In this document: positions 41,344 through 41,603 of the stretch, one piece after another
Numbering within the stretch: position 1 is the first letter of the stretch
Layout: each line of letters opens with the position of its first letter
NCBI RefSeq assembly: GCF_048403405.1
Contig: NZ_CP183129.1
DNA: 64,000 bases
Reading direction: 5' to 3' (one strand)
Origin: Escherichia coli
GTDB taxonomy: Bacteria; Pseudomonadota; Gammaproteobacteria; Enterobacterales; Enterobacteriaceae
Notes under the pieces: model-generated
The model's input: the letters and a program-made list of their open reading frames with translations, nothing else
What the model was told of the DNA's origin: nothing
Databases searched by the model: none
Position numbers and translations under genes: made by a program

Positions 41344-41375
41344 TTTGTAAACCGTCCGGCACTCAATCGCCAAAA

Positions 41376-41603
41376 AGAAAAAAGCCAGCAGATAATCACT
41401 GCTGGCGTGGCGATTAACACCAATACTCAGTCACACATGATGTCCGCAAATCAGTAGCCAGAATGACTCCCCTCCCACTGCATCAGTTCTTCAAGCATGG
41501 TTAATCGTTGTGGGACGCTTAACCAACGCAACCAGCACAACTTCGCTGTCGCGGTAAAATAGTGCTGATAAAACTGACGCATGGGGCACCTCCTTGCTTC
41601 ATC
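41376..41603 (-). ncRNA. sgrS: SgrS small RNA (glucose-phosphate stress); 3' terminator hairpin lies about 40 bp from the leuD stop
   Basis: Minus strand begins gatgaagcaaggaggtgccccatgcgtcag, contains gtgtgactgagtattggtg core and a terminal hairpin plus U-tract; divergent from sgrR. Confidence 0.85.
41451..41582 (-). CDS. sgrT: SgrT small protein (43 aa) encoded within sgrS
   Basis: MRQFYQHYFTATAKLCWLRWLSVPQRLTMLEELMQWEGSHSGY at the C-terminal end of track ORF 41451..41750. Confidence 0.85.
   Translation of the reverse strand: MRQFYQHYFTATAKLCWLRWLSVPQRLTMLEELMQWEGSHSGY

Follow-up and report, generated by a model that had tools for sequence, protein, structure and literature searches.

The window, a 64,000-nucleotide stretch of Escherichia coli DNA (contig NZ_CP183129.1), encodes the small RNA SgrS in full on the minus strand at 41377-41603, where it matches the Rfam covariance model RF00534 from position 1 to 232 of 232 with 229.8 bits (E=1.5e-65; the gathering score is 37 bits). 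The RNA begins with GAUGAAGCAAGG at 41603, and the match ends at the C that follows a run of six U. Divergent from this 5' end is the activator gene sgrR (41671-43329, plus strand), identified from the list of ORFs and from the annotation of strain 7/2, which is 100% identical to the window over a 381-nt query consisting of sgrS and its flanks. Within sgrS, the sgrT ORF (41451-41582, minus strand) is intact, starts with ATG and is translated as MRQFYQHYFTATAKLCWLRWLSVPQRLTMLEELMQWEGSHSGY (43 amino acids); it is annotated as sgrT (WP_001248769.1) in strain 7/2. The ptsG-pairing core GUGUGACUGAGUAUUGGUG can be read directly from the minus strand at 41418-41436 and is the same in K-12 and O157, while ptsG itself lies outside the window. 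The core is also identical in 44 enterobacterial loci, which were found with a scan pattern that itself demanded most of the core. The full-length Rfam match, the ATG-initiated ORF and the presence of the core bear out a sequence-only reading of this DNA in which the 5' end, sgrT and the pairing core were held to be intact. Hfq dependence and induction by glucose-phosphate stress are known for the SgrS of K-12 (PMC2760806, PMC4509938).

The 3' end of SgrS and its surroundings

On the minus strand, the terminator hairpin at 41384-41406 consists of GCCAGCAG (41406-41399), the 7-nt loop UGAUUAU (41398-41392) and CUGCUGGC (41391-41384), which form an 8-bp stem with a G-C closing pair. It is followed by a first tract of six U (41378-41383), by an interrupting C at 41377, by a second block of five U (41372-41376) and then by GGCGAUUGAG. 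The hairpin was recovered both by folding, with a free energy of -14.1 kcal/mol (z = -4.4; none of 200 shuffled sequences folds equally well), and by a terminator scan; with eight pairs, six of them G-C, a 7-nt loop and the T-rich tail TTTTTTCTTT, it qualifies as an intrinsic terminator, and the consensus of the scan calls it on the minus strand only. The sequence-only reading had described the 3' end in just this way and had placed it at 41372-41410, an interval that covers the feature correctly. Directly upstream, at 41408-41422 on the minus strand, the small stem-loop UGGUG-UUAAU-CGCCA appears in the minimum free energy fold; the K-12 allele folds there into GGUG-UAAAAU-CACC, a retained structure of changed sequence. 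Judged from these folds, the stem-loop is the putative second hairpin of the Hfq-binding module, a double hairpin described in PMC5558911 and PMC7870926.

Several further features of the window were recorded. At sgrS position 20 (approximately 41584), the window has GGAGGUGCCCC (GGAGG) and K-12 has GGGGGUGCCCC (a GGGGG stem variant). A K-12-specific 5' stem-loop of SgrS has been reported to inhibit translation of sgrT (PMC2760817, PMC2760806); because GGAGGUGCCCC replaces GGGGGUGCCCC, this stem-loop is predicted to be weakened in the window, and SgrT may be translated better in this strain. Beyond sgrR, approximately 1 kb (43324-44344) between that gene and the thiB TPP riboswitch is not present in K-12 and includes an ORF of 189 amino acids (43570-44139, minus strand) that the RefSeq annotation of the identical strain 7/2 names as the T3SS effector EspY2; no NCBIfam or PADLOC match to this ORF was found. 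Rfam matches above the gathering score also include, on the minus strand, naRNA4, STnc40 and PssrA (8569-8646, 9162-9231 and 14878-14967), the last of which is named as a plasmid-encoded small RNA of Shigella and has a chromosomal context here, and, on the plus strand, the leader of the leu operon (36469-36618).

The terminator in K-12, in other E. coli and in related genera

K-12 MG1655 has the same gene as the window, with the same promoter region, first 138 nt or so, pairing core and two-hairpin 3' module, and with seven of the eight terminator stem pairs in common. Its 3' end, however, reads CCAGCAG-AUUAUAC-CUGCUGG-UUUUUUUU-AUUCUCG, in which the unbroken run is eight U counted from the GG, in agreement with the run of about eight uninterrupted U that the sequence-only reading had given for K-12. 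Identity of the two 3' ends, which that reading had named as the result that would overturn it, is not what the alignment gives; the alleles differ. In the K-12 numbering of PMC7870926 (stem 199-205/213-219, tail 220-227), U220 is the counterpart of the closing C at 41384 and U227 that of the interrupting C at 41377, and the window form amounts to U220C plus U227C, together with changed loop and spacer sequences. The first substitution converts a possible G198.U220 pair into the G-C pair that closes the window stem, and the second is the interruption itself: the U run is eight in K-12 (seven if the G.U pair forms) and six in the window, and the base that follows it is A in K-12 and C in the window. 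Calculated with the same parameters, the free energy of the K-12 hairpin is -12.6 kcal/mol with eight pairs including G.U, or -10.6 kcal/mol with seven; published values for K-12 SgrS, about -10.7 to -11.3 kcal/mol, have been described as moderate (PMC5558911). A classical terminator score that combines hairpin and T-tail is 40 for the window and 33-35 for K-12.

Both forms are common and highly uniform. The window-type 3' block is present in 2156 of 5426 complete E. coli genomes (39.7%), O157:H7 included, and the K-12-type block in 3238; among the former, 2150 have the 37-nt hairpin with U6-C-U4 at 99% identity or more, and among the latter, 3209 have a 79-mer from K-12 at that level. The chance that sequencing or assembly introduced the interrupting C by mistake is close to nil: homopolymers have a general tendency toward miscalls, and nothing else favors such an error, which can be rejected because thousands of independent complete genomes, as well as other species, have the very same sequence. 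The carriers, as far as strain names tell, include O157:H7, O55:H7, APEC O1:K1:H7 and UPEC strains for the window type, and K-12, O103:H2, O111:H8 and O91:H21 for the K-12 type, which suggests that the two haplotypes are split by phylogroup. The split fits what are presumed to be the phylogroups of these strains, B2/D/E/F for the window type and A/B1 for the K-12 type.

A scan of species representatives with the core pattern as an exact match, a sample outside which the distant homologs of Serratia, Yersinia and Erwinia fall, returned the 44 enterobacterial loci mentioned above, and the terminator is readable in 43. A G-C closing pair followed by exactly six T and a C, most often CG, is found in 37 of the 43 Enterobacteriaceae representatives, which belong to about ten genera. 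Seven T are found in five (two Salmonella subspecies, Citrobacter youngae, Citrobacter koseri and Citrobacter braakii), and GGT with eight T solely in the one K-12-type locus, that of Escherichia sp. MOD1-EC7003. The stem GCCAGCAG/CUGCUGGC is unchanged in 42 of the 43, the exception being one compensatory change from G-C to A-U in Enterobacter chuandaensis, and the loop and spacers vary. The Rfam consensus of SgrS likewise has a G-C closing pair, and its seventh tail position is weakly conserved. Because the G-C closure is shared by 37 of the 43 representatives and the Rfam consensus, the window terminator is, as judged from these homologs, the ancestral and majority form in the Enterobacteriaceae, and the U8 of K-12 a derived outlier. 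The description of the window terminator as divergent thus holds insofar as six U and a C are a real difference from K-12, but the divergent allele is that of K-12. That about ten genera and nearly all window-type E. coli genomes keep GGC-U6-C indicates what would be a working, selected design.

Two observations concern the segment between the core and the terminator. Klebsiella, Raoultella and Enterobacter sp. JUb54 have an extra segment there, which closes with a second copy of a AGAGUAUAAAAUCACCC-like sequence; the terminator that follows is otherwise identical in all of them. Two variants of the spacer between core and terminator, UAAAAUCACCC (K-12 type) and UUAAUCGCC(A/G)C (window type), each occur in several genera, and both preserve the small hairpin; this distribution points to a polymorphism that is old and shared, or else to exchange on repeated occasions.

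Absence of setA, the convergent leuD gene and the second U block

In K-12, sgrS is followed by setA, a gene for a sugar efflux transporter (1179 nt; locus L061, 868-2046), and a published synteny figure for SgrS from 2009 includes this gene (PMC2760817). In the window, no SetA-coding sequence is found between sgrS and leuD by the annotation of strain 7/2, tblastn or BLAST against K-12; the site of the missing gene is the short interval (41344-41371) that separates the SgrS tail from the stop codon of leuD, and sgrS converges on leuD (40738-41343, plus strand), which was delimited by the annotation of strain 7/2, BLAST against K-12 and sliding identity. Strain 7/2 and O157:H7 are annotated with the same arrangement. 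By tblastn, setA lies directly after sgrS in every genus other than Escherichia in which the locus is long enough, and is missing in Escherichia albertii, Escherichia whittamii, Escherichia sp. E1V33 and a fourth representative titled E. coli (L019). The window and these four representatives have the junction TTTTTTCTTTTTG(G/A)CGATTGAG in common. Complete E. coli genomes are split approximately 60:40 by the presence or absence of setA.

The difference from K-12 is not confined to the terminator. By BLAST and sliding identity, identity to K-12 decreases to 71% over the final 100 nt or so of sgrS, beginning inside the part of sgrT that encodes the C-terminus (EGSHSGY in the window versus DDRNSES in K-12, inside the haplotype block that is unlike K-12), and to 72.7% in the last 44 nt or so of leuD, with flanks of 92-100%. 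The difference between the K-12 and window terminators is, from these comparisons, apparently one border of an old polymorphism that divides E. coli into two haplotypes. Two simpler histories were considered. Deletion of setA between repeats is unsupported, since the sequences on either side of the indel also diverge from K-12, and nothing in the setA-leuD spacer of K-12 corresponds to GGCGATTGAG. That K-12 recently acquired setA horizontally from another genus is unsupported by protein identities: K-12 SetA is 77-89% identical to the proteins of Citrobacter, Salmonella and Klebsiella, and LeuD about 86-92%.

In K-12, sgrS and setA are co-transcribed by readthrough of the terminator, with about half of the polymerases passing it in unstressed cells and feeding setA (PMC4509938). 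In the window type, where setA is gone, readthrough would have no known use and would produce RNA antisense to leuD. Past the leaky terminator of sgrS, one haplotype has a stress-response transporter gene and the other antisense leuD, and the terminator difference marks this old split within E. coli between presence and absence of setA.

The proximity of leuD, whose stop codon precedes the second U block (41372-41376) by 28 nt and the hairpin by 40 nt, raises the question of whether the hairpin terminates transcription in both directions, ending the convergent leuABCD transcript as well, with the participation of the plus-strand A-rich run that lies upstream of it. An outer, perfect 8-nt inverted repeat, AATCGCCA/TGGCGATT, is compatible with this role, as is a composite plus-strand fold of -24.7 kcal/mol, but the z-score of the plus-strand fold is a modest -2.55, the terminator is called on the minus strand alone, and the plus strand after the hairpin reads GUGGCGAUUAACACC, without a U tract; the bidirectional role is accordingly considered improbable. 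The arms of the inverted repeat, at 41365-41372 and 41408-41415, enclose both the hairpin and the U tract, and the setA-less Escherichia loci preserve the repeat, E. albertii having one mismatch. In a transcript that reads through the terminator, the 3' half of the Hfq module's small hairpin would be paired with the downstream arm (-35.5 kcal/mol, z = -4.2).

In alignment, the second U block matches the beginning of the ancestral sgrS-setA spacer (CGUUUUGGC and TTTTTTCGTTTTGGC in Citrobacter amalonaticus, for example), apart from a change of G to T. The change, which produces CUUUUU from the usual CGUUU, is common to all setA-less Escherichia loci sampled; other genera have GUUU(U) in place of the block. 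Within window-type E. coli its length varies between U5 and U4, with U4 in about 10 of 40 evenly spaced entries (approximately 25%). At intrinsic terminators, RNA release usually takes place 7-9 nt past the stem, a range that reaches the first two U of the second block, and the sequence-only reading had allowed that termination may run through to this block. If it did, the mature end, U6-C-U(2-5), would be the real Hfq-binding tail, and the presence of CUUUUU in all of the setA-less loci would fit. Against this, the length of the block varies, its first base is G in most genera, the Rfam model stops 7 nt past the stem, positions beyond +9 lie outside the usual window of release, and in E. coli GF131 an IS200C element apparently comes immediately after U6. 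Because the block is not conserved, being U4 in about a quarter of the window-type entries and GUUU(U) elsewhere, it is unlikely to be a functional tail, and termination extending into it is rather doubtful. In the preferred reading, the U5 after the C would be the start of the former sgrS-setA spacer, in which the change of G to U may marginally improve termination, and not a second functional tail.

In GF131, the sequence departs from that of the window right after U6, and tnpA of IS200C is annotated approximately 140 nt further on, a pattern consistent with insertion of the element directly after U6. NZ_LR778147 loses similarity at exactly the same point, and the sgrS terminator may be an insertion hotspot.

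Conservation of the C after U6 also leaves room for a function of this base itself: it might fix the point of release or the 3' end, limit slippage of the polymerase or trimming by exonucleases, or set the level of readthrough into setA, in which case the U8 of K-12 and the CUUUUU of Escherichia would be two independent re-tunings of termination that followed, respectively, retention and loss of setA. The probability of such a function is judged to be low.

Termination, Hfq binding and comparison with known systems

The features of the window are very probably those of an ordinary intrinsic terminator that doubles as the Hfq-binding 3' module of SgrS, in its ancestral and predominant form, and linked to a haplotype. 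With an 8-bp hairpin and U6, termination would most likely occur approximately 7-9 nt past the stem, so that the RNA would end with U6, U6C or U6CU, and, by extension from K-12, Hfq would bind both the U-rich 3' end and the small hairpin before it. The K-12 type, in which setA follows sgrS, would have acquired its long U run by two changes of C to T, at positions 220 and 227, and the window type, in which setA is missing and sgrS converges on leuD, would have retained the terminator typical of the family.

The sequence-only reading had reasoned that a long U tail matters for Hfq binding and that the interrupted tract may alter it, and published rules for K-12 make the question a reasonable one. 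Work from the Aiba laboratory (PMC5558911), citing Otaka 2011, gives a poly(U) tail of at least seven as necessary for stable binding of SgrS to Hfq, and states that the terminators of small RNAs have at least seven T and that termination must reach the seventh. In the same paper, 3' RACE of K-12 SgrS-S found tails of 8U, 7U and 6U in 11, 3 and 1 of 15 clones, and stabilization of the K-12 hairpin by four more G-C pairs (from -10.7 to -24.0 kcal/mol) shifted termination upstream, making it premature (PMC5558911). The mutations U224A and U224G in the K-12 tail increase readthrough and weaken regulation (PMC7870926), and, in K-12 work, the readthrough products of SgrS fail to bind Hfq. The window has six T and then C where the K-12-derived rule has at least seven consecutive T, so its SgrS can end in no more than six U in a row. 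Because 37 of the 43 homologs have six T, the rule for SgrS is, on this sampling, a description of K-12 rather than of the family.

From these results it could be argued that the window allele is functionally different, with shorter or C-containing tails, weaker binding to Hfq, and weaker or slower repression of ptsG, the effect being quantitative and not a loss. The rule of seven U and the premature termination seen with stabilized hairpins (PMC5558911) point in this direction, as do the regulatory defects of the U224 mutants (PMC7870926) and the combination in the window of six U, a G-C closure and a hairpin of -14.1 versus -12.6 or -10.6 kcal/mol. The stabilization involved, however, comes from a single pair and is about 1.5-3.5 kcal/mol, compared to 13 kcal/mol in the published long-stem construct, and the window hairpin is somewhat stronger than that of K-12 and far from -24.0 kcal/mol. 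That 37 of 43 species and 2150 of the 2156 window-type E. coli genomes retain the design argues for purifying selection on a working module. A natural analog is the SgrS of Klebsiella pneumoniae, which has the same stem and U6-CG as the window allele: in E. coli it yields an RNA of approximately 400 nt, consistent with termination there (PMC2760817), and it represses ptsG'-'lacZ of E. coli, dependent on pairing, about as well as the K-12 allele does (PMC2760806). By this analogy the same terminator would be expected to serve the window RNA, and a functionally different allele is considered unlikely. A search of the literature on SgrS in EHEC and UPEC found no Hfq-binding or 3'-end results that bear on the terminator. 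Nothing suggests a defect in the window terminator; the concern over Hfq was apt as a question raised by the K-12 rule, and there is no sign of an impaired allele.

The rules for the SgrS terminator and Hfq-binding tail were worked out in K-12, which has an atypical terminator, and should be applied elsewhere with care. The window carries a common natural allele of a well-studied small RNA, which matters little by itself: it is real, ordinary and already known since 2009, when the CFT073/O157:H7 Sakai allele of SgrS, 88% identical to that of K-12, was catalogued with its terminator by Horler and Vanderpool (PMC2760817).

Among the closest known systems, an O157:H7 locus has an identical terminator, the U6-C-U5 tract and the context convergent with leuD; it differs from the window in having ATT for the sgrT start codon and two substitutions just past the tail. 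The ATT of the O157:H7 gene (Z1769) was published in 2009, and RefSeq nonetheless annotates an sgrT CDS there. The SgrS of CFT073 is, according to PMC2760817, of the same allele class and keeps the ATG of sgrT as in the window. K-12 differs from both the window and O157:H7 in having setA downstream of sgrS, and from the window also in the sequences of the loop and spacer. The RNAs of Citrobacter, Enterobacter, Klebsiella, Raoultella, Siccibacter, Superficieibacter, Pluralibacter and Yokenella have the same 8-bp stem, G-C closure, U6 and C as the window, but proceed to GUUU, the setA leader and setA itself, whereas the window goes on to UUUUU and the 3' end of leuD; in Klebsiella and Raoultella, as in Enterobacter sp. 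JUb54, 71-174 nt separate the core from the terminator. The Hfq-binding module defined in earlier work (Otaka 2011; Ishikawa 2012; Morita 2017, PMC5558911) resembles the window in its order of small hairpin, terminator hairpin and U-rich tail; it is defined with a terminator hairpin of moderate stability and comprises at least seven consecutive T, whereas the window and most of the SgrS homologs sampled have six.
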